NCBI RefSeq assembly: GCF_057098645.1
Contig: NZ_CM169472.1
DNA length: 64,000 bases
Strand: one strand, 5' to 3'
Positions 3,881 to 29,604 of the stretch are shown piece by piece. The notes under the pieces were generated by a model. That model was not told the origin of the DNA. It searched no databases and was given only the letters and a program-made list of their open reading frames with translations. The stretch's first letter is position 1; the number at the start of each line of letters is the position of its first letter. The position numbers were made by a program, and so were the translations under genes.

Positions 3881-6800
3881 TTACGCCTTCTCGATGTTGA
3901 CTAAGAACGCTTTATATTCCGGCGTTTGCGAGTTTGCATCACCGACATTCGGCGTCAGAGTGTTAGCGATATAACCTTTACGCGCGACACCCTCAAAGCC
4001 CCAGTGGATTGGAATACCCACCGTTTCAACCTGCTGACCATTTACATTCAGCGGTTTCAGACGACGCGTTACCACAGCCACCGCGCGGATAAAGCCACGC
4101 TTGCTTGAGACAGTGACACGATCGCCATTATTAATGCCTTTCGCCGCCGCCAGCGTTTCGCTGATTTCCACAAACTGTTCCGGCTGAGCAATTGCGTTGA
4201 GCAATGCGTGCTTGGTCCAGGTGTGGAAGTGCTCGGTCAGACGATAGGTCGTACCCACATACGGGAACTGCTCTTTTTTACCCATCCGCAGTGCGTCTTG
4301 TTCATACAGACGAACAACCGGGTTAGACACCACGTTCGGATGCAGCGGGTTAGTGCCCAGTGGCGTTTCAATCGGCTCGTAGTGTTCCGGGAACGGACCT
4401 TCCGCCATTTTGTTGATGGCAAACAGGCGTCCCATCCCTTCCGGCTGCATGATAAACGGCCCGGTTGGCGTACCCGGTGCGGCATTGCCGAAGTCAGGAA
4501 TATCGTTACCCGTCCACTTGCTGCCGTTCCACTGGATCAGCATCCGTTTCGGATCCCACGGTTTACCGTTGATATCCGCCGAAGCACGGTTGTACAGCAC
4601 GCGACGGTTGAGCGGCCACGCCCAAGCCCATCCCAGCGTATTCCCCAGACCGGACGGGTCGGAGTTATCGAGGTTAGCCATCTGGTTGCCCTGCTCTGTC
4701 CAGCTACCGGTGTAGATCCAGCAAGAAGATGCGGTTGTACCGTCATCACGCAGATGCGCAAAGCTACTCAGCAACTGACCTTTCTTCGCAATCAGCACGC
4801 CATTAGCATCATAGAGATCTTCCAGCGCATAGCCGTTGTTCTCTTTAGCTACTTCGTCAGATTGCGGTTCGTGCGGCTGCTTGTAGTTCCAGCTCATCTT
4901 CATCAGCGGTTCTACGCCTTTACCACCTTCGGCCTGGTACAGCTCGCGCAGGTGATGGTAGATACCCGCCAGAATTTCACCGTCGTTACGCGCTTCGCCC
5001 GGCGCATCCTGACCTTTCCAGTGCCACTGCAGCCAGCGACCGGAGTTAGCAATAGAACCATCTTCTTCAGCAAAGCAGGTCGAAGGCAGACGGAATACTT
5101 CAGTCTGAATAGACGCCGGATCGACATCGTTCGACTCGCCGTGGTTCTGCCAGAAGGTTGAGGTTTCAGTCACCAGCGGATCGATAACCACCATGTACTT
5201 CAGCTTGCTCAGGCAGCTCACCACTTTGTTTTTGTCCGGGAAGGACGCAACCGGGTTAAAGCCCTGGCAGAAATAACCGGTGACTTTGCCTTCATCCATC
5301 ATGTTGAAATACTTGATGACGTCGTAGGTCTGGTCCCACTTCGGCAGCCAGTCATAGCCCCAGTTGTTCTCTTTCTGCGCGGCATCGCCATAGAAAGATT
5401 TCATCAGGCTAACGAAGAACTTCGGATAGTTGCTCCAGTAGTTCACCTGACCAGCCAGCGTCGCTTTCGGCGTGTTCGCTTCCAGATACGACTGCAAATC
5501 AACCTGTTTTTCTGACGGCAGCGTCAGATAACCTGGCAGGCTGGTAGAGAGCAGACCTAAGTCAGTCAGACCCTGAATGTTGGAGTGACCACGCAATGCA
5601 TTCACGCCGCCACCGGCCATACCCATGTTACCGAGCAGCAACTGGATCATCGCCATAATACGGATGTTCTGCGCACCCACGGTGTGCTGCGTCCAGCCCA
5701 GCGCGTACAGGAAGGTGGTTGTGCGATCCGGTGCGCTGGTGGAGGCCAGCACTTCACACACTTTCAGGAAGTCGGCTTTTGGCGTACCACAGATGTTTTC
5801 AACAACGTCCGGCGTGTAGCGGGAAACGTGCGCTTTCAGCAGGTTCCACACACAGCGCGGATGAGTCAGTGTTTCATCGCGTTTCGCATAGCCGTTTTCA
5901 TCGAACTGATAGTTCCAGGACGATTTATCGTATTGCCGTTTTTCAGCGTCGTAGCCGCTGAACAGACCGTCTTCGAAAGCAAAATCATCACGCACCAGCA
6001 GGCTGGCGTTGGTGTAATGCTTAACGTATTCGGCGTTGATTTTGTCGTTTTCGATCAGGTAGCGCAAAACGCCAGACAGGAACGTAATGTCCGTACCGGA
6101 ACGAATAGGTGCGTAAATATCCGCCACAGAAGCGGTACGCGTAAAACGGGGATCGACAACGATCAAGGTTGCATCGTTGTTGTTTTTCGCTTCCATCGCC
6201 CAGCGGAAACCGACGGGATGCGCTTCAGCAGCGTTACCGCCCATTACCATTACGACGTTAGCGTTTTTGATATCCACCCAGTGGTTGGTCATCGCACCGC
6301 GACCAAATGTTGGAGCAAGACTTGCTACCGTTGGTCCGTGTCAGACGCGCGCCTGGTTGTCTACCGCCAGCATCCCGAGGGAGCGGGCAAATTTCTGGGT
6401 CAGCATCCCGGTTTCGTTGCTGGCACCGGAAGCACACAGCATACCGGTAGAAAGCCAACGGTTTACCGTTACGCCCTGCTCGTTCTTTTCAATAAAGTTA
6501 GCGTCACGGTCAGCTTTCATCAGCTTCGCAATACGGGAGAATGCTTCTTCCCAGCTAATGCGCTGCCATTTGTCAGAACCTAGCGCACGATATTCCGGGT
6601 AGCGCAGACGGTTTTCGCTGTTGACGTAATCCAGCAAACCGGCCCCTTTCGGGCACAGCGCACCACGGCTTACCGGATGATCCGGGTCACCTTCAATGTG
6701 ATAAATCGCTTCTCTGGCGTTTTTCGCGCCATCACCCAGGCTATACATCAATAGCCCGCAACCTACGGAACAGTATGTGCAGGTGTTACGGATCTCTTTA

Positions 6801-7159: not shown

Positions 7160-8041
7160 ATGACACGACAAAAAGCAACGCTCATAGGGCTGATAGCGAT
7201 CATCCTGTGGAGCACGATGGTAGGATTGATTCGCGGTGTCAGTGAGGGGCTCGGCCCGGTCGGCGGCGCAGCTGCTATCTATTCATTAAGCGGGCTGCTG
7301 TTAATCTTCACGGTTGGATTTCCGCGTATTCGGCAAATCCCGAAAGGCTATTTGCTCGCCGGGAGTCTGTTATTCGTCAGCTATGAAATCTGTCTGGCGC
7401 TTTCCTTAGGGTATGCGGCGACCCGTCATCAGGCGATTGAAGTGGGTATGGTGAACTATCTATGGCCCAGCCTGACAATTCTCTTTGCCATTCTGTTTAA
7501 TGGTCAGAAAACCAACTGGTTGATTGTACCAGGATTATTATTAGCCCTCGTCGGCGTCTGCTGGGTGTTAGGCGGTGACAATGGGTTACATTATGATGAA
7601 ATCATCAATAATATCACCACCAGTCCATTGAGTTATTTCCTGGCGTTTATTGGTGCGTTTATCTGGGCCGCTTATTGCACAGTAACGAATAAATACGCCC
7701 GCGGATTTAACGGAATTACCGTTTTTGTCCTGCTAACGGGAGCAAGTCTGTGGGTTTACTATTTTCTCACGCCACAACCAGAAATGGTATTTAGCACGCC
7801 CGTCATAATTAAACTCATCTCTGCGGCATTTACCTTAGGATTTGCTTATGCTGCATGGAATGTCGGTATATTGCATGGCAACGTCACCATTATGGCGGTA
7901 GGTTCGTATTTTACGCCCGTACTTTCCTCAGCGCTTGCAGCCGTGCTGCTCAGCGCCCCACTGTCGTTCTCATTCTGGCAAGGCGCGCTAATGGTCTGCG
8001 GCGGTTCCCTGCTCTGCTGGCTGGCGACACGTCGTGGTTAA
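7160..8041 (+). CDS. yddG: DMT-family aromatic amino acid exporter
   Basis: 293-aa polytopic membrane protein; synteny. Confidence 0.9.
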   Translation: MTRQKATLIGLIAIILWSTMVGLIRGVSEGLGPVGGAAAIYSLSGLLLIFTVGFPRIRQIPKGYLLAGSLLFVSYEICLALSLGYAATRHQAIEVGMVNYLWPSLTILFAILFNGQKTNWLIVPGLLLALVGVCWVLGGDNGLHYDEIINNITTSPLSYFLAFIGAFIWAAYCTVTNKYARGFNGITVFVLLTGASLWVYYFLTPQPEMVFSTPVIIKLISAAFTLGFAYAAWNVGILHGNVTIMAVGSYFTPVLSSALAAVLLSAPLSFSFWQGALMVCGGSLLCWLATRRG

Positions 8042-8045
8042 AATA

Positions 8046-8070
8046 ACTGCCGGGTCTACGGCCCGGCAGT
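8046..8070 (+). terminator. Hairpin ACTGCCGGG-N7-CCCGGCAGT after yddG (no clear U-tract)
   Basis: 9-bp inverted repeat 5 bp after yddG stop. Confidence 0.35.
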
Positions 8071-8300
8071 TAATCAGATAAATTCCGACAATATTAAAAG
8101 AATAAATTTCAAATACCAGCAATTCACCTTATATCTCATTTCGACTTCGATCACATATCGATAAATAATATTATTTCATCTATTTTTCTCATTGTTTTTA
8201 ATCACCATTCTATTTTAAAAACAGCATGTCATTTATAAATGACGCCGTTTAAAATTCGTTTAGGAAATACGTTTAACGATAATTAAAAGGATTCTGTTAA

Positions 8301-9398
8301 ATGAAATTAAAAATAGCGGTGGTTGTAACTGGTTTGTTAGCTGCGAACGTAGCACACGCTGCCGAAGTCTATAACAAGGATGGTAATAAACTCGACCTTT
8401 ATGGCAAGGTTACCGCTCTACGTTATTTTACTGATGATAAGCGTGACGATGGTGATAAAACTTATGCCCGTCTCGGCTTTAAAGGAGAAACGCAAATCAA
8501 TGATCAAATGATTGGTTTTGGTCACTGGGAATATGATTTTAAAGGCTATAACGATGAAGCCAACGGCTCGCGCGGCAACAAGACCCGTCTGGCCTATGCT
8601 GGTTTAAAAATTAGTGAATTTGGCTCTCTGGACTATGGTCGTAACTACGGTGTCGGCTATGACATTGGTTCATGGACCGATATGTTGCCAGAATTTGGTG
8701 GCGATACCTGGAGTCAGAAAGATGTCTTCATGACATACCGTACCACCGGTGTAGCAACCTATCGCAACTACGATTTCTTTGGCTTAATTGAAGGGCTGAA
8801 CTTTGCCGCGCAATATCAAGGCAAAAATGAACGTACTGACAACAGTCATCTTTATGGTGCTGACTACACGCGTGCCAACGGTGACGGTTTCGGTATCTCC
8901 TCAACTTATGTTTATGATGGCTTTGGTATCGGTGCGGTATATACCAAATCCGATCGGACAAATGCGCAGGAAAGAGCCGCTGCTAATCCTCTCAATGCCT
9001 CCGGTAAGAATGCAGAACTGTGGGCCACAGGTATAAAGTATGATGCCAACAACATCTACTTTGCAGCTAATTACGCTGAAACATTAAACATGACCACCTA
9101 TGGGGATGGTTATATCTCGAACAAAGCACAAAGTTTTGAAGTGGTGGCGCAATATCAATTCGACTTCGGCTTGCGCCCATCACTCGCTTACCTGAAATCG
9201 AAAGGCAGAGATCTGGGCCGCTACGGCGACCAGGACATGATTGAGTATATCGACGTTGGTGCGACGTATTTCTTCAACCAAAATATGTCGACCTATGTTG
9301 ATTATAAAATCAACCTGATTGATGAAAGCGACTTTACCCGTGCCGTAGATATTCGCACCGATAACATCGTCGCAACGGGCATTACCTATCAGTTCTAA
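8301..9398 (+). CDS. yddL: General outer-membrane porin (OmpC/OmpF/PhoE family), intact 365 aa
   Basis: Signal peptide ending AHA|AEVY; beta-barrel porin sequence with C-terminal Phe; low-GC flanks; the K-12 ortholog is a pseudogene as far as I recall. Confidence 0.8.
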
Positions 9399-9411
9399 CA
9401 TCCTCTCCTGA

Positions 9412-9437
9412 CCAGCCCTTCTCTGGGCTGGTTTTTG
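9412..9437 (+). terminator. Rho-independent terminator (CCAGCCC-N6-GGGCTGG + TTTTT)
   Basis: GC stem followed by T5, 14 bp after porin stop. Confidence 0.8.
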
Positions 9438-9567
9438 ATTTAAGTGCTGCTGTATGACTCCTTAAGTAAAAATGAGCAATTTTTGATATTTCTGATCATT
9501 CACCTCAATTAATATTATTCCATACCCTCCGGGGACATCTTACTATAATATTTATTGATGAGTGATT

Positions 9568-10827
9568 ATGACCAATATTAATACAGCTTGTGTAAAAAAT
9601 AATGCCAGTTATCAATTTAATAACGCATTACCTAACAAAGAAACCATCTCCAGCAATTTTTGTGAACGACTAGAACAATGGGGTAATAAGTCGCTTAATA
9701 ATGGTGAAGAAAGAGCAATTGCCGTGGAGCGAATTAAAGAAGCTTACAATTCGAACATGGCATCTCTTGATTTGTCATATCTTGATTTGAGTGAGTTGCC
9801 GCCTATCCCTTCGACAGTTAATACGTTAAATCTGGAAAACAATTGTCTAACTTGCCTTGACTTTGCTGACAATGCTAGTCTCGTCAATATCAACCTCAGC
9901 TTTAATAAAATTAAAACGATAACCTTTCCAAATGAATCAAAACTGGAAAATATTTATATTGATCATAACGATCTGGAAAGTTTAGATTTTAAAAACCAAA
10001 ATTCATTGATTAATCTGGAAGCACAAAATAACAACCTGACAAAAATTAATATTTCTGAAAGTTATAAACTGAAATTTCTTAATCTTGATTATAACAAACT
10101 ATCATCACTGGATCTCTCCCGGCAAGAGTCTCTGATTGAGTTAAGTGCCCATCACAATATGATCACTGACCTTATATTACACAATCATCCCAGGATGAAA
10201 ACAATCACTTTAAACGACAACCATATTGCACATTTAAACACCAAAACCACTACAAAACTTGAATATTTAAACTTAAGCAATAACAATTTATTGCCAACCA
10301 ATGACATTGATCAACTAATATCATCAAAACATCTTTGGCATGTATTAGTTAACGGCATCGACAATGATTCACTTGCACAAATGCAGTACTGGACTGCAGT
10401 AAGAAATATAATTGATGACACTAATGAAGTGACCATTGATTTATCTTATAATCTGGCAATCACAAATATCGATACCAGTGATGAACATCTTGTAGAAGTA
10501 AGCGATAATTCAGAAGGTAATTATATAAAAGACAATGACTCAATGTCTATTCGTTATAGATCAAAATATTATTCCAGAGATTCCGCCTTAATAGAAGAAG
10601 AAACAATATTTTCTGACGCAGAACTAAAAGCTATTCTGCCTATGCGTCGCATGTACGGGGTTGGTGACTATAAGTCAAATTCCTCTTCTCTATCCTCACT
10701 CTCGGGGCTCAAGGACCCAACGGGCACACCCGTCTGTTATTATATTCATAATGAGAGTAAACCTTCCTTAGGTTATGGTCCAACATGCAATAATTGGTTA
10801 AGCCAATCCTTTACAACAGAGTTATAA
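9568..10827 (+). CDS. yddK: Leucine-rich repeat protein with IpaH/SspH-like N-terminal LRR region, no NEL domain
   Basis: ~22-residue LxxLxLxxNxL repeats; N-terminal W..GEER..AV.RIKE...LDLS.L.LSELP resembles IpaH-family LRR N-termini; AT-rich. Confidence 0.75.
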   Translation: MTNINTACVKNNASYQFNNALPNKETISSNFCERLEQWGNKSLNNGEERAIAVERIKEAYNSNMASLDLSYLDLSELPPIPSTVNTLNLENNCLTCLDFADNASLVNINLSFNKIKTITFPNESKLENIYIDHNDLESLDFKNQNSLINLEAQNNNLTKINISESYKLKFLNLDYNKLSSLDLSRQESLIELSAHHNMITDLILHNHPRMKTITLNDNHIAHLNTKTTTKLEYLNLSNNNLLPTNDIDQLISSKHLWHVLVNGIDNDSLAQMQYWTAVRNIIDDTNEVTIDLSYNLAITNIDTSDEHLVEVSDNSEGNYIKDNDSMSIRYRSKYYSRDSALIEEETIFSDAELKAILPMRRMYGVGDYKSNSSSLSSLSGLKDPTGTPVCYYIHNESKPSLGYGPTCNNWLSQSFTTEL

Positions 10828-23476: not shown

Positions 23477-23574
23477 GATTACGCTCCTTTTGAAAGATGT
23501 CAGTAAAATTAACACACATTGTGAATGTCGTGTGTCCGGTAATGCGTTTTTACGACAATAATGCCAGGGCAAGA

Positions 23575-24102
23575 TTACGAAAGCCTTCTCCCCGCAAGGA
23601 CTGACGCCAGGTAGTTTCTGTCCATGGCTGCTTTTCGCATCTTACGTCTTAACCCAGCCTTGAATACCTTATCATTCGTCAAAATATTAATAGCAATGTG
23701 CCGTATCCCTGAAAATAATTCTGCTGCATTTCCTCTTCTTATTTTGCAGTCGTCTTCATTCATTACCACGTCCAGACGCCAGTGCAGCTTATTCTCCACG
23801 TGCCAGTGGTTTCGGATTGCTGTGGCGAACTTCTCTGCGGTTAAATCAGCAGAACTGATATAATATCTGACCGTCATTTCTGGCTCTTTCTTTTGTTCTG
23901 CTATTATGGACCGAAAGGAGACTGCCACGCATAATTTCTTCAGCCCTTTCCATTCAAACGTGAAATCAATAAGTTCATCAGGAACATCGCAAACAATATG
24001 AAGACGGATTTCTTCTCTGCCGTGACTAAAATGCGAATTATTTAGTACAAAAAAAGCGGCGCACCTTGTTCTTTCCCAGATTCCTAATATGGCAACTTTA
24101 AG
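23575..24102 (-). pseudogene. ISAs1-family (H-repeat-associated) transposase, 3' fragment only
   Basis: Open frame of 175 codons with no start codon; C-terminal region with [22 protein letters not shown] typical of H-repeat ORFs; N-terminal half replaced by AT-rich DNA. Confidence 0.7.
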
Positions 24103-24266
24103 TTATCGCCGTCTATACTTATAGAAATTTCATCAGGGGTGACATAAATAGAATTTTTTTCATCCTCAATTGCCCATAACTGATTAATAAAAAAGTGTTT
24201 TTTATCATCTAATAACAAATCATCACATGTAGTAAAATTATTAATATCAAAAAAAATCATCAGCAC
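24084..24266 (-). CDS. Hypothetical small acidic protein (58-60 aa)
   Basis: ORF only; overlaps the end of the upstream ORF; no clear RBS. Confidence 0.3.
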
Positions 24267-24678
24267 AATTAATTTTTAAATTTAAAAAATAAAGAAAAAT
24301 ATTATTGATTGATTTGAGTGTAAACCACTTGTCATTAACAAATTTATAGCTAGATGATTTTATAAAATAATAATTATCTCCTGGTATAAAGGCATACATA
24401 TCATTTAAGGTTATACTCAACAAAAAACTACGACCTGGTTTAATAGTATTCCAGCGTTCAGGATTCGTATTAATTTCAAAAGGACATGAACCACCTAAGT
24501 AGTCCAACGTGATATTCCCAGAGTTGATCCTGAATGGTTTTTTGCATATCGCATCATATTCATCTCCTTTTCCATCTTTTACTTTCATAGGTAGATAATA
24601 TTTAGAAAAAAAATACGTGGTAGAGCTATTGTTAGTAAAGGTTATGTTAGCAAAAATCCTGTTATTTTTTTTACTCAT
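24247..24678 (-). CDS. Hypothetical protein; frame is open upstream to 24822 without a start (possible disrupted gene)
   Basis: 143-aa ORF from ATG 24678; same frame open for a further 48 codons upstream; an overlapping 38-codon ORF with ATG lies in another frame. Confidence 0.4.
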   Translation of the reverse strand: MSKKNNRIFANITFTNNSSTTYFFSKYYLPMKVKDGKGDEYDAICKKPFRINSGNITLDYLGGSCPFEINTNPERWNTIKPGRSFLLSITLNDMYAFIPGDNYYFIKSSSYKFVNDKWFTLKSINNIFLYFLNLKINCADDFF

Positions 24679-24956
24679 AGCTAATTGAGCATTGACATCC
24701 GCTATATAATTTATATGATTACATTTTTTCTTACACTCATCATAATTTTCGATAGGATAAATTAATGGTCTTCCTTTGATATCTCTCTCAAGCCCAAACC
24801 CGTATTTTTTATTAAAACCATTTCATCCGCAGTCGATTGAAAGGAATAGAAAAATATAATATTTACGATTGTCATTATTATGATTTTTTTATAGCTTGCA
24901 GCATTAATATATTTCTCGACTTATTAGTTAATGGAGAAGTGTTTTTTCTAATTCCG

Positions 24957-25184
24957 CTATTTTTTCTTAACTGAATTGCTTAATATTTCATCATTAATCG
25001 AGTCTATCTCACTTTCAATTAATCTTATTTCAAAATATCTTTCTATGTTATATGCATTCTCAAATATTTGATCTTTTTGTTTAGAGATCAGTTTAGTTGC
25101 AATACGGATATGTTCGTCATATGAAACTTCATCCTCTTTGCACGTTGAATATTTATCAGTAGTTGTATAATCCTGTGACCACAT
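24957..25184 (-). CDS. Hypothetical acidic protein (75 aa)
   Basis: ATG preceded by AAAAGGTGGT; net acidic; AT-rich. Confidence 0.5.
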   Translation of the reverse strand: MWSQDYTTTDKYSTCKEDEVSYDEHIRIATKLISKQKDQIFENAYNIERYFEIRLIESEIDSINDEILSNSVKKK

Positions 25185-25266
25185 ACCACCTTTTTATTAT
25201 CCCCATAATACCACTGAATATGAGACATTTCATGACATAAAGTAGTAACATGAGAATCCTTTCCCG

Positions 25267-25716
25267 TTACTGGATTTTTTTGCCATCTCTATACTCAAAT
25301 TTTGCGCCTATGTTAATTATATAGGACATATCCTTACTTGGGCTGACGAATGCTGCAAATTCATTACAACCTGTATAATTTATAAAACTGCTCATTGTTA
25401 AATCATTAGCTATAATCATTAATCTTCTCACGCCATCCATCATAAGAAATCTAGCATTCATGCGCCTACCTGTATTATATCCATATTTTCTTATATTAAC
25501 TTCCTTATTTCCTTTAACACCAAAGATCTTACTGAAATAATATTCCTCCTGTGCTCCCCATCTCAAAAGATCATCTGCTCTTTTTATCAAAACCAACTTT
25601 TGTGCCTTACGAGCCTTATCAATCATTATTTTAAAATGATCAGTTATTTTTTGCTCTTTCACACATTCTTCTGGCTCTGGCTTTGGTTGTCCAGAAGTTT
25701 GATTATTATCGTCCAT
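25267..25716 (-). CDS. Hypothetical basic protein (149 aa from internal ATG)
   Basis: ATG 25716 preceded by GGAAGGA; net basic; no family recognised. Confidence 0.5.
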   Translation of the reverse strand: MDDNNQTSGQPKPEPEECVKEQKITDHFKIMIDKARKAQKLVLIKRADDLLRWGAQEEYYFSKIFGVKGNKEVNIRKYGYNTGRRMNARFLMMDGVRRLMIIANDLTMSSFINYTGCNEFAAFVSPSKDMSYIINIGAKFEYRDGKKIQ

Positions 25717-25903
25717 AGTGTCCTTCCATTGAGAGAAAATCATCATTCGCAAATAGCAACTAAAAAGCAGCATTACTTGACCTTTCCCTGCATAACAATA
25801 TTTATAAAATAATACGTTTTATGATCTCACCTTGGGCTCCCAACAAGATAATTTCAGTTTTAAAGACTTTCACGAAAAAAATATAGAAATACCTCACCAC
25901 CCT

Positions 25904-26194
25904 TCACTTACCAATTAATCTCACAGGAAATCCAACTTCCTTACCACAAATACAATCCCAAGTAACACCTCCCAAAATTTTTGATACTTTAGGCTGCAAT
26001 GGCATTATTGACATTATAAATTTATCAAGTTCTTCGCTATATTTAATTCCCTTTATATTTCTTATTATTGATATTCTAGCAGTAAAGATAGCCGTCTCTC
26101 CATCTACACTAAAAGTGTAATTACAATTTTTTGTAATCTCATCAAATTCAACCGATAACAAATCAATATTATGGTTTGTAAACACTATGCCCAT
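25904..26194 (-). CDS. Hypothetical protein (96 aa), candidate immunity partner of the upstream papain-like domain
   Basis: ATG 26194 overlaps the stop of the upstream ORF by 26 nt. Confidence 0.45.
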   Translation of the reverse strand: MGIVFTNHNIDLLSVEFDEITKNCNYTFSVDGETAIFTARISIIRNIKGIKYSEELDKFIMSIMPLQPKVSKILGGVTWDCICGKEVGFPVRLIGK

Positions 26195-26672
26195 TCCATA
26201 CCTCCTTAAATTCCTGTTCAGTCATCAGATATCGACTCCCTTGATATGGATCATATATTATCACATTCCCAGCATCATCAACACCCTTAACAAGTACCCA
26301 ATGCCCTACTTTACTTCCAGAATCCCATATCATTGCTCCCCATGAACCAGTATTACTGAGGGCATATAAACTAGATTCGCTCACTGCATTCCCTTCCCAG
26401 CCGACATCAAATTTATTAAGCTTGTTTGCCAGCGACGTCATAGATGTTAATTCTGTTCCAATTACATTTTGCGTGACAAAAATATACCTATCCCTAAGCA
26501 ACATTTCCCCACAGGCCGCTCCACAGCCTGTTAAAGTCAATTGCTTTATTACATTTGAATCTAAAACCTCATCAAATACTGTCCAATTGCCACCAGCACC
26601 ACCTTCTAAAACTACCGGCTCTACAAATACTTTCCCAGAGATATTTTCTTCTGGTATTTTTGCGGGTATCCA
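26169..26672 (-). pseudogene. Orphan papain-like (C39-like) cysteine peptidase-fold domain without an ATG/GTG start
   Basis: Frame open 26672-26169; only TTG at 26540; motifs TGCGAACGEML (Cys) and GHWVLVKGVDD...IIYDP (His, Asp) in papain-fold order. Confidence 0.5.
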
Positions 26673-28144
26673 TTACTGGTGGCGTCTTCAAACCGCAGCT
26701 CGTTAAATCCGCTTCCTTTATAGGTTTTTGACCGGATGGTCATCTGCGTCTTCGTTCCCGGCAGGTCGCCCGGCGAACGGTTGTCCTCATGGTAGGTCCG
26801 CCCCATGATTATCGGCTGGTCCGGGTCGCCGTTCAGAAAATCAACAATCACCTCCTGGCCCACCCGCGGTATCGCCAGGTTACCGAACCCCGGCCCCGCC
26901 CACGCCTGCGACACCCGCACCCAGCATGAACTCGCCTCCGTCATCCCGTGATAACGGTCCCAGTGGAACTTCACCCGTACCCGGCCATGCTCGTCGCAGA
27001 AAATCTCTTCTCCCGCAGGCCCGGTGACAATGGCGCTCTGTGGCCCGTCCACCTTCGGTTTGTTTTGCAGCCGTGGACGCCACGTCCGGTCCGCCGGTAT
27101 CACCTCTAACTGATTTCCCAGCGTGGTTCCCTTTCCCTGGCTGCCGTGCAGCGCCTGCGGCTGGCTTCCTGACAGTATGCTCTGTACCACCTGCCATTCA
27201 CGGTTCAGCATCTTCTGCGGATGCCTCGTCAGCGTAAACCGCGTTCCCGGCCACAGCCTCGGCGAATTACTCTGCCCTGTGGCCTTTTCCGCATCACTGC
27301 GCAGGCTGTCCATCTGGTACAGCGTGAAATCCTTGCCGTGCTGCTCGTCCTTGAACCTTCCCGGATAATCAAATATCTCATACTGCGCCAGCTGTCCGTT
27401 CAGGTTCTCACCCTGCTGCTCATACATCCCCGGCCAGTCCGGCACCTTAAACGTGTAATCCTGGCTCTGTACCGACGACGGGCGGACATACGCCTCATAA
27501 CGGAACATACTGACACACTCTGTCTCCGCTCCTGCCGATGTGTCCGGGTTAAACGGAAACTCCCCCGCCTGTGACAGCCCCGCCACATCGTCGCACAGCG
27601 TCAGCTTCTGCTCCGGACTGTCCGCCGCAAACCGCTCAAAGAAGAAAATCCCCTCCTCCGCCCACAGCCGCGCCAGAAACGCCAGGTCGCTCTCACCGTA
27701 CTGGACACAGAACTCCCGCGCCGGATGGTCTTCATAAAACAGCGGAGTCCACTCCGTGACGCCGTTCTCGTTCAGTAACGTGGCCGATACCGTCCGGATA
27801 TCCTGCTGCTGGAAGATACGGAAGTTCTGCCGCAGCCCGCACCGCCATAACGGCGGCTCAATACGCAGGTGATAACGCATCTGCCAGCCATTGTTCTCCT
27901 GCATGCCAAAGCCCGCCACCACGCCGGTAACATAACGCAGCGGGATGACGCCCTGCCAGATGGTCAGCGTCGCCTTCTTCTCCAGCAGCATCCCCGCCGT
28001 CTGCATAAAAGAGTCGCTGGCAACATCCACACTCATCACAAACGGATATGACTGGTTCTGGATTAACCTGAAATTCGCCACTGCAAAGGTGTCCGGCTCC
28101 TGGCCGTCAATCTCCAGCGTAAAGCGCAGACCTTTTAAGGACAT
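26621..28144 (-). CDS. VgrG (T6SS spike) N-terminal gp27/gp5-like portion, truncated at ~490 residues
   Basis: Conserved VgrG blocks incl. SSCWVRVSQAWAGPGFGNLAIPRVGQEVIVDFLNGDPDQPIIMGRTY; C-terminal 20 residues unrelated; GC-rich then abrupt AT-rich junction near 26670. Confidence 0.85.
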   Translation of the reverse strand: MSLKGLRFTLEIDGQEPDTFAVANFRLIQNQSYPFVMSVDVASDSFMQTAGMLLEKKATLTIWQGVIPLRYVTGVVAGFGMQENNGWQMRYHLRIEPPLWRCGLRQNFRIFQQQDIRTVSATLLNENGVTEWTPLFYEDHPAREFCVQYGESDLAFLARLWAEEGIFFFERFAADSPEQKLTLCDDVAGLSQAGEFPFNPDTSAGAETECVSMFRYEAYVRPSSVQSQDYTFKVPDWPGMYEQQGENLNGQLAQYEIFDYPGRFKDEQHGKDFTLYQMDSLRSDAEKATGQSNSPRLWPGTRFTLTRHPQKMLNREWQVVQSILSGSQPQALHGSQGKGTTLGNQLEVIPADRTWRPRLQNKPKVDGPQSAIVTGPAGEEIFCDEHGRVRVKFHWDRYHGMTEASSCWVRVSQAWAGPGFGNLAIPRVGQEVIVDFLNGDPDQPIIMGRTYHEDNRSPGDLPGTKTQMTIRSKTYKGSGFNELRFEDATSNGYPQKYQKKISLGKYL

Positions 28145-28162
28145 AAATACCTCTCAGACATA

Positions 28163-28447
28163 TCAGCCTACATTTACCGTACCGCCACCAATGACCACAC
28201 CACCACAGTCGATGGCATCACCGGTTCTGGCGGCGGGCAGGCCGTCAATAAAGACGGTTGACGAGCCTCTGGCGATTTTACGGGGATGAGGGGGATGCTT
28301 CGGTTTAGCATGCGGCGTCAGCGGATCTCCCTGGCGGGCTGCGGGGAGACCATCGATAAAAACGGTGGATGACCCGGCGGTGATGACGGTCTCGTAATAA
28401 CCGTCGTGCTGGGTGCCTTTGTCGGTGAGTTTGGCTGCTAAAGGCAT
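28163..28447 (-). CDS. PAAR-domain protein (94 aa)
   Basis: Two STVFIDGLPAAR(Q/T)GD PAAR motifs; AGGAGG RBS; 18 bp upstream of vgrG. Confidence 0.8.
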   Translation of the reverse strand: MPLAAKLTDKGTQHDGYYETVITAGSSTVFIDGLPAARQGDPLTPHAKPKHPPHPRKIARGSSTVFIDGLPAARTGDAIDCGGVVIGGGTVNVG

Positions 28448-28986
28448 AATTCCTCCTGTTCAGAATTTCTACAGCAGCAGGTTTCAAAAATCCGGAGAAA
28501 TATTCAACGAAATATTAATCACTTCACCGGATATTCTGATACGTACCTTCACTGGTCTATTTAAGTAATACAAATTGTTGGCGTGAATTAAGTTCCATTT
28601 TGTTCTCCTTAATTATGTAAGGAGTATTTGATCATGTATAAGCAATAAAAACAGCTTCAGGAAATAAGGAATATCGCAATTTTTAAACATAAAATGCGAA
28701 TCGTTCAATACAAAAAAGCAGCGTTGCGTAATCTTTCCCTGATTAAATACGCTACCGCCCTACCCTGATGACATGATCTGCACTGCACTATCATATCGAC
28801 ATGTTTCTCTACATGCGAAAAGATGTTTTATTTTCGGATTGTATTAAATTGATATTTCATATAAAAAACGAAATTACATCAATCATATAAATAGTTGTAC
28901 CAACTTTAATTACTATTCATAGCAAACAAATGAATATCCAGTTAACTACGCCAGTGATTCATTAACATTAACCTCCGGCATTATTG

Positions 28987-29604
28987 TTAAATAATGACAT
29001 TCCTTTTTAATACTTCTTGTAATTTCGGTAACTGACATACAGCATCAGCAATCGCACTGATATTCGTGGCATTATCCTGAAACCATTCATGCCCAGGCCC
29101 CCATGTGCGCATAGTGCAAAGATAACAGTCCACCAGCGTTAGTTGCTCACCAAACGCATAAGGTTCAGCGGTCAATTGTGAATTCAGCCAGATATAAAGC
29201 GATTTACGATATTCAATAACATTCTTCTTTAACTGTTCGGGTGCGTCAGGAGCCCAACGCTCAGGGTAATCGGCGAAAGTGAATGTTGGATAGACATTAG
29301 CAACCAGCCAGACCAATAGCCGTTGAAACTGCTGACGTTCGGCGCGCCCAACCGGTGGCGCAAGGTCCGGGCGACGATCGAGAACCATCAATGCAATCGC
29401 CGCTGTCTCCGTCATAATCTCGTCATTTTCCAGCGCCAGTGTCGGAATCTGACACAACGGGTTCAGGGTTTTCAATAACTCGCGTGAAGTTCCCTCGTGG
29501 TCAAAACCACTGACATCAACGAACTGATAAGGAATATCAGCCAGTGTTAGCATCAGCTCACTGATTGTAGAGCCCCATCCGGGTACGCCATACACCTTAA
29601 TCAT
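28987..29604 (-). CDS. yncG: Glutathione S-transferase-like protein
   Basis: 205 aa; GST fold sequence; synteny. Confidence 0.85.
   Translation of the reverse strand: MIKVYGVPGWGSTISELMLTLADIPYQFVDVSGFDHEGTSRELLKTLNPLCQIPTLALENDEIMTETAAIALMVLDRRPDLAPPVGRAERQQFQRLLVWLVANVYPTFTFADYPERWAPDAPEQLKKNVIEYRKSLYIWLNSQLTAEPYAFGEQLTLVDCYLCTMRTWGPGHEWFQDNATNISAIADAVCQLPKLQEVLKRNVII

Follow-up and report, generated by a model that had tools for sequence, protein, structure and literature searches.

A vgrG-cpe1 junction in Escherichia coli O145:H28, the probable scar of a 2,592-bp deletion within a type VI secretion auxiliary module

Orphan immunity genes and toxin-immunity modules occur in type VI secretion system (T6SS), Rhs and contact-dependent inhibition (CDI) loci, for example in the orphan modules of Escherichia coli rhs and cdi. 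Among T6SS toxins, Cpe1 is a delivered papain-like cysteine protease with catalytic residue C362 that cleaves GyrB and ParE and is neutralised by Cpi1 (Song et al., PLoS Biol 2025, PMC12136450). We examined a stretch of 64,000 nucleotides (the window; RefSeq assembly GCF_057098645.1, contig NZ_CM169472.1) from the E. coli O145:H28 lineage, in which the 5′ part of a vgrG gene is joined to the 3′ part of cpe1, with an intact cpi1 behind it. The junction was left, with a probability that we put at about 0.9, by a single internal deletion of 2,592 bp in a T6SS auxiliary module at the yncG-pptA locus. The components all belong to described systems, namely T6SS-1-type VgrG, the Cpe1-Cpi1 pair and orphan immunity or toxin remnants, and the locus shows gene decay of an ordinary sort rather than an element of a new type. 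Searches of the literature returned no paper on this deletion, its ancestral form or parallel lesions, and the Cpe1 study (PMC12136450) makes no mention of orphan or truncated copies, O145 or DUF2169. The features that meet at the junction are:

26671-28144, minus strand: 5′ remnant of vgrG, codons 1-491, comprising the gp27-like hub, the OB fold and 24 residues at the start of the beta-helix (TIGR03361; comparison with full-length alleles; Pfam on a 660-amino acid relative).
26670-26671, no strand: probable deletion scar, with 2,592 bp absent relative to the intact module (collinearity with PapRG-04-4, locus L010; 80-bp junction query; junction alignments).
26621-26670, minus strand: out-of-frame tail of the truncated vgrG, 16 junk codons (GYPQKYQKKISLGKYL) and TAG, which are cpe1 DNA in the wrong frame (translations; stop codon at 26623-26621).
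26169-26670, minus strand: 3′ remnant of cpe1, codons 314-479 and stop, with a complete C39 papain-like toxin domain and neither start nor delivery domain (S88 DNA; PDB 9L5U; Pfam; list of open reading frames).
25904-26194, minus strand: cpi1, intact immunity gene of 96 amino acids (96/96 identical to Cpi1 in 9L5U chain C; S88 accession WP_000513317.1).

At its toxin end the locus closely resembles the described Cpe1-Cpi1 pair (PMC12136450; 9L5U), with one substitution in the toxin domain, Cpi1 identical at 96 of 96 residues and DNA 99.7% identical to that of strain S88. An earlier reading of the letters and their open reading frames (ORFs), hereafter the sequence-only reading, had described a second frame that opens at 26672, overlaps the vgrG 3′ end and runs into a papain-like domain, and this description held. 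Specifically, the frame opens with TGG at 26672, right after a TAA at 26675-26673, and ends with the stop at 26171-26169, while its residues 25-167 match the C39 domain at 142 of the 143 Cpe1 residues of 9L5U chain A (E=1e-95). Across the cpe1 remnant and cpi1 the DNA is 99.67% identical to S88, and 3 of 912 bases differ between the remnant and functional copies. The NCBIfam scan offered no hidden Markov model for Cpe1, Cpi1 or the M35 gene further downstream, which means that RefSeq names them on some other basis, and the identification came via the PDB sequence search. The sole amino-acid change in the toxin remnant is M427I (window 26328), which is also found in ECNB21-M121; the residues on either side, M426 and W428, are named as part of the hydrophobic surface to which Cpi1 and substrate bind (PMC12136450).

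The differences from that pair lie in delivery and in location. In the full-length, 479-amino acid Cpe1, Pfam placed a Tox-PAAR-like domain at residues 15-115 and Peptidase_C39 at 352-474, and the break falls in the linker between them. Codons 1-313 are gone from the window, including the start codon and the Tox-PAAR-like/DUF4150 domain, and no translatable full-length ORF is left; the gene for the DUF2169 adaptor is absent as well. DUF2169 proteins are adaptors for DUF4150/PAAR-like effectors. Moreover, the window locus is the yncG-pptA auxiliary site, whereas the S88 pair sits in the main T6SS-1 cluster by yafV.

Catalytic C362 is present in the remnant and, by the C39 consensus, H436 and D453, both also in the remnant, would complete a Cys-His-Asp triad. 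The ORF list held no in-frame ATG, GTG or TTG in the remnant before Cpe1 residue 357. The first in-frame start is the TTG at 26540 (residue 357), which has no Shine-Dalgarno sequence and stands just after Q356, presumably the oxyanion-hole glutamine given the six-residue Q-to-C spacing typical of C39. RefSeq annotates WP_000926703.1 (26169-26504), a 111-amino acid 'cysteine peptidase family C39 domain-containing protein', with a PGAP start at M369, after C362. TTG 357 follows Q356 and ATG 369 follows C362, and the remnant is not expected to yield a product whose active site is complete. This 111-amino acid O145 protein is a Cpe1 fragment, and would be better annotated as a pseudogene remnant.

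On the other side of the junction, the minus-strand ORF at 26621-28144 has 507 codons, and residues 8-489 matched the TssI/VgrG family model TIGR03361 (E=1.5e-164). It shares the hub and OB fold with E. coli T6SS-1-type VgrG/TssI, to which its DNA is 94-97% identical over 1.47 kb, but is cut in the beta-helix and carries 16 junk residues after the cut. Residues 1-491 were identical at 475 of 491 positions to the VgrG of PapRG-04-4 and at 473 of 491 to that of THO-008. The sequence-only reading had traced conserved VgrG sequence as far as RFED, followed by 20 unrelated residues to a stop at 26621; the stop was correct, while native sequence in fact continues to ...GFNELRFEDATSN (residue 491) and leaves a tail of 16. 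In a full-length, 660-amino acid VgrG, Pfam recognised Phage_GPD at 34-328, an OB domain at 385-451 and Gp5_trimer_C at 468-542 and 545-603. The break, at residue 491 of 660, leaves 24 residues of the first Gp5_trimer_C beta-helix domain, in agreement with the suggestion that vgrG had been cut inside its gp5-like region. Of the parts of a functional spike, the hub and OB fold both precede residue 491 and are present in the window protein, whereas the beta-helical trimerisation domain (468-603), which provides the spike and docks PAAR, is cut. RefSeq already calls this vgrG a pseudogene 'missing C-terminus' that ends at window 26672.

The two overlapping frames could in principle be functional, if -1 ribosomal frameshifting fused VgrG to Cpe1 (an 'evolved VgrG'), or if translation from an internal start gave an active intracellular toxin that makes up an addiction pair with Cpi1. 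The cpe1 frame is indeed -1 relative to vgrG, with an overlap of 51 nt that includes a CAAAAAT run, the DNA of the toxin domain is undamaged, and papain-like toxin domains fused to VgrG are known elsewhere (PMC12136450). We nevertheless regard either form of this proposal as highly unlikely. The overlap holds no canonical X XXY YYZ slippery heptamer and is unaltered native cpe1, and therefore nothing was selected there, on which grounds programmed -1 frameshifting was rejected. The truncated VgrG is without the beta-helix that a trimeric spike requires, and published comparisons find T6SS-1, T6SS-3 and OI-7 absent from the lineage. As for an internal start, the TTG without a Shine-Dalgarno sequence lies just past Q356 and the PGAP ATG past C362. 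Nor does the arrangement resemble an evolved VgrG, since no in-frame effector follows a complete beta-helix; instead, the joint is in the first beta-helix repeat and cpe1 follows a TAA stop in the -1 frame.

The breakpoint is exactly 26670/26671, as three independent comparisons agree: S88 cpe1, full-length vgrG alleles and a junction query. The last consisted of 80 bp (window 26631-26710) and was run against 5,426 complete E. coli genomes, the collection to which all genome counts below refer. It was 100% identical in 31 of these, comprising 26 of the O145 lineage as well as ECNB21-M121, 33F4, 32F4, 33E and OZ282453. Between O145 and ECNB21-M121 the cpe1 remnant and cpi1 are identical, and the vgrG remnants differ by 2-4%. 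The other 533 matching genomes, among the matches listed, had only bases 1-40 (cpe1) or only bases 41-80 (vgrG), and no homolog that reads through the junction as one intact frame was found among them. A query with the cpe1 remnant and cpi1 found 332 genomes with one copy each, about 300 of which have the full-length, 479-amino acid cpe1, annotated as 'PAAR-like domain-containing protein' or as Cpe1; in these the match ends at window 26670. Every such locus that we examined (S88, SCU-485 and CREC7837) had the full-length gene beside yafV and next to T6SS genes. Conversely, full-length vgrG alleles match from window 26671 on. Alignment to them had been proposed by the sequence-only reading as a way to the breakpoint and did provide it, the alleles running on to 660 or 801 residues. 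Neither of the two observations that would have refuted that reading, a single intact frame in full-length homologs or a natural end of VgrG at this point, was made.

At the joint, vgrG codon 491 is followed by cpe1 codon 314, which is shifted to the -1 frame. The parental sequences, AGTAATG/AGCAGG in vgrG and GCTTTAT/GATACC in cpe1, give AGTAATG/GATACC in the window, a blunt joint. A 3-bp 'ATG' microhomology that MAFFT alignments had suggested was ruled out base by base, there being no shared base. A role for the insertion sequence (IS) ISAs1 at this junction was also rejected, as no ISAs1 sequence is present at the joint and an ISAs1 end occurs only at an older junction downstream.

Sequencing or assembly error, either a frameshift or a mis-join in a gene that is truly one intact frame, might also produce such a joint, and homopolymer lengths do differ from other O145 assemblies nearby (24665, 24884 and 25191). 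This carries negligible weight, since 31 complete genomes, each assembled independently, share the junction with 100% identity, 2.6 kb rather than one base is gone, and neither parental frame crosses the joint.

The form from which the junction derives is represented by PapRG-04-4. At the same site this strain has, intact, PAAR, vgrG (660 amino acids), DUF2169, cpe1 (479 amino acids) and cpi1, followed by the M35 gene. Window 26671-29000 corresponds to positions 12963-15292 of the PapRG-04-4 locus (L010), and window 23564-26670 to positions 7263-10370. The two are collinear on both sides, and only L010 10371-12962 (2,592 bp) is gone, taking with it VgrG residues 492-660 (the beta-helix spike), the whole DUF2169 gene and Cpe1 residues 1-313. 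This comparison bears out the earlier suggestion of a deletion or illegitimate recombination that fused a 5′ part of vgrG to an out-of-frame tip of another gene. We propose that the ancestral module would have consisted of PAAR, vgrG, the DUF2169 adaptor gene, cpe1 and cpi1. One deletion would then have removed the VgrG spike, the DUF2169 gene and the cpe1 start with its PAAR-like delivery domain, and the ends would have been joined bluntly, leaving a 507-codon vgrG pseudogene, the Cpe1 protease domain as presumably untranslatable DNA, and cpi1 intact.

Base composition fits the same arrangement. The GC content does switch near 26670 from about 0.6 to about 0.4, as had been noted, lying at about 0.60-0.64 over 26700-27100 and at about 0.40-0.43 over 26200-26700; the 100-base flanks of 26670/26671 have 0.53 and 0.41. 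The further claim that the AT-rich DNA is foreign was not upheld, for it forms the cargo end of the vgrG module itself, and GC already declines along the intact form, from 0.59 in the vgrG core to 0.45 in the vgrG 3′ part, 0.37 in DUF2169, 0.38-0.40 in cpe1 and 0.30 in cpi1. The step in the window exists because the deletion abuts the vgrG core and cpe1, skipping the gradient between them.

A different origin for the joint would be the arrival of a foreign cassette of about 0.9 kb, with the 3′ part of cpe1 and cpi1, in a module of an 801-amino acid vgrG and M35, by illegitimate recombination at both ends and with replacement of 876 bp of vgrG. The locus of THO-008 invites this view: at the same site it has PAAR and a full-length, 801-amino acid vgrG directly before M35, and the window looks like a clean replacement, since it lacks positions 5125-6000 of that locus (L005) and has in their place 909-912 bp with 99.7% identity to S88 cpe1-cpi1. 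PapRG-04-4, however, has the whole vgrG-DUF2169-cpe1-cpi1 unit at the locus with the same downstream junction, and PapM-32-1 and 2018-05-2CC retain cpe1 and DUF2169 DNA that is absent from the window, yet share that downstream junction too. On these three strains, the upstream junction of the window is therefore a secondary deletion and not the edge of a cassette. We dropped cassette replacement for 26670/26671, where we consider it quite improbable; it fits only the older event at 25761/25762.

The same strains speak to the deletion reading through their own lesions. In PapM-32-1 (L007), vgrG breaks off at codon ~82 and runs directly into the final 164 nt of the DUF2169 gene, and 2018-05-2CC (L009) has IS600 in vgrG plus a 796-bp deletion from the vgrG 3′ end to the DUF2169 5′ end. 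Each of the lesions keeps DNA that the others lack; they are therefore independent events from the intact arrangement, and the junction in the window is accordingly a single deletion within the locus. The downstream join of cpi1 to M35 was present in 34 of the 5,426 genomes, three of which have full-length cpe1 at the yncG-pptA locus, and cpi1 was annotated as intact at every locus examined, PapM-32-1 and 2018-05-2CC sharing the downstream junction. The locus is thereby a clean, datable example of T6SS auxiliary module decay, in which the immunity gene outlasts all three lesions. Two points weigh against a deletion: the intact form is represented by one genome only (PapRG-04-4), and the direction of the change, a deletion here and not an insertion there, is one that we infer from parsimony and from the subsets kept by PapM-32-1 and 2018-05-2CC.

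As a side observation, the cpe1 module at the yncG locus has undergone three different inactivations and is fully intact in 1 of the 34 genomes, PapRG-04-4 (L010), where M35 is frameshifted.

The strain context is consistent with decay. A single cpe1-related site and a single vgrG of this type occur in O145, and no full-length cpe1 is present there, since each genome has one cpe1/cpi1 copy. O145:H28 has been found to lack T6SS-1 and T6SS-3 genes and the OI-7 T6SS island (PMC9144400; PMC5567499). In O145 strain RM9872 the aspV-yafV interval (L011 2930-3579) holds a lone hcp and a partial ORF, where S88 has T6SS-1 genes and other E. coli a main T6SS cluster. No T6SS apparatus was found at the aspV-yafV locus of RM9872, other loci not having been scanned. 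The module can probably deliver nothing any more, and we regard the island as a decaying auxiliary module because vgrG and cpe1 are cut, T6SS-1, T6SS-3 and OI-7 are reported absent, and M35 and its partner gene are broken. Its significance beyond correct annotation is small.

What may be left is immunity. The cpi1 gene is preceded by a strong Shine-Dalgarno sequence (AAGGAGGT at 26200-26207) and overlaps the cpe1 3′ end by 26 nt, the same as in S88. Most O145 records label its product a 'hypothetical protein', an annotation that can be improved, since the unnamed 96-amino acid protein beside the C39 fragment is Cpi1. As in other orphan T6SS, Rhs and CDI modules, a toxin tip without a translation start lies beside an intact immunity gene, and the strain has no functional toxin copy. 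In contrast to those, the case at hand would stem from internal deletion of the sole copy and not from a displaced tip behind a full-length gene, and O145 has no full-length cpe1 for recombination.

Given read-through from a PAAR-vgrG promoter, the only activity left to the locus would be orphan immunity, with Cpi1 guarding against E. coli armed with Cpe1. In favour of such a role are the strong Shine-Dalgarno sequence of cpi1 and its place downstream of PAAR and the truncated vgrG. Intact main-cluster cpe1 is carried by about 300 of the 5,426 genomes, including S88, UTI89 and LF82. We suggest, tentatively and as the less probable outcome, that enterohaemorrhagic (EHEC) O145:H28 without a T6SS and a few bovine or food isolates might keep the wreck of the module since read-through from the promoter of PAAR and the truncated vgrG could express cpi1 and protect them in the gut from Cpe1-armed strains. 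Two considerations limit this suggestion. Promoter-like sites in 25700-29000 numbered 10, with 6.1 ± 2.6 expected, and neither promoter nor terminator counts in that interval were over the shuffled expectation, so that they speak neither for nor against expression of cpi1. Additionally, retention of cpi1 could be neutral; selection on it cannot be read, because the gene has only 291 bp and the remnant, 3 of 912 bases from functional copies, is too recent. The locus makes a simple test case for whether orphan immunity shields T6SS-less pathogens from E. coli that wield Cpe1.

The 64 kb around the junction are ordinary core chromosome, from maeA to gapC, and the module forms a 5-kb island flanked by yncG (28987-29604) and pptA, at the site that rhsE occupies in K-12. 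Within the O145:H28 lineage, 24 complete genomes match window 25800-28500 at 100% identity and two further ones differ from it by about one base, while identity to a few other isolates is about 98%. The remaining features of the island are:

28163-28447, minus strand: intact PAAR protein gene, 94 amino acids, the first gene of the module (NF033420 T6SS_PAAR_dom over 1-94 of 94, E=9.8e-47; annotated as PAAR protein in RM9872).
25762-25790, minus strand: 29-bp fragment of an ISAs1 (H-repeat) end beside cpi1, part of the older junction (alignment of four ISAs1-end contexts; junction alignment).
25706-25761, minus strand: last 56 nt of a second vgrG, of the 801-amino acid type, overlapping the M35 start codon (window 23563-25761 corresponds to THO-008 L005 2924-5124; vgrG at L005 5069-7474).
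24928-25716, minus strand: M35 metallopeptidase effector gene, frameshifted in T-runs (one nucleotide missing at each of 25275, 25191 and 24960 in comparison with ECNB21-M121, whose copy is intact; split coding sequence in O145 annotations).
24084-24678, minus strand: remnant of the gene 3′ of M35, a putative immunity gene with 261-264 amino acids when intact (ORFs of 143 and 60 amino acids against coding sequences of 792 nt in 33F4 and 786 nt in THO-008).
23565-24054, minus strand: ISAs1 transposase remnant at the island boundary beside pptA (NF033564 transpos_ISAs1, E=1.7e-29; annotated as partial ISAs1; blastn).

At the older junction, DNA downstream of cpi1 and the 29 bp of an ISAs1 end abut the last 56 nt of the second vgrG, which suggests that the cpe1 module and an ISAs1 copy were placed upstream of a vgrG-M35 module and that a later deletion took away the greater part of both the IS and the second vgrG. 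The minus-strand ISAs1-end sequence of the 29-bp fragment is CAGGGAAAGGTCAAGTAATGCTGCTTTTT. Further DNA of this kind was found at 28588-28741, where about 155 bp upstream of PAAR resemble an ISAs1 end and are 86% identical to the one beside S88 cpi1, and at 24027-24054, where a 28-bp stretch beside the ISAs1 remnant is an exact match. At the 28588 position, 33F4 and ECNB21-M121 have an ISAs1 copy plus another module of vgrG and an M23 peptidase gene.

Finally, we noted length differences of one base in T5-T8 runs at 24665, 24884, 24960, 25191 and 25275. Those at 25275 and 24960 shift the M35 reading frame in O145 genomes at large, while those at 25191, 24884 and 24665 are confined to this window; for window 24800-25400, no RefSeq complete genome is 100% identical, the best reaching 99.7%. 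These differences reflect either errors in the sequencing of homopolymers for this assembly or tracts that are hypervariable.

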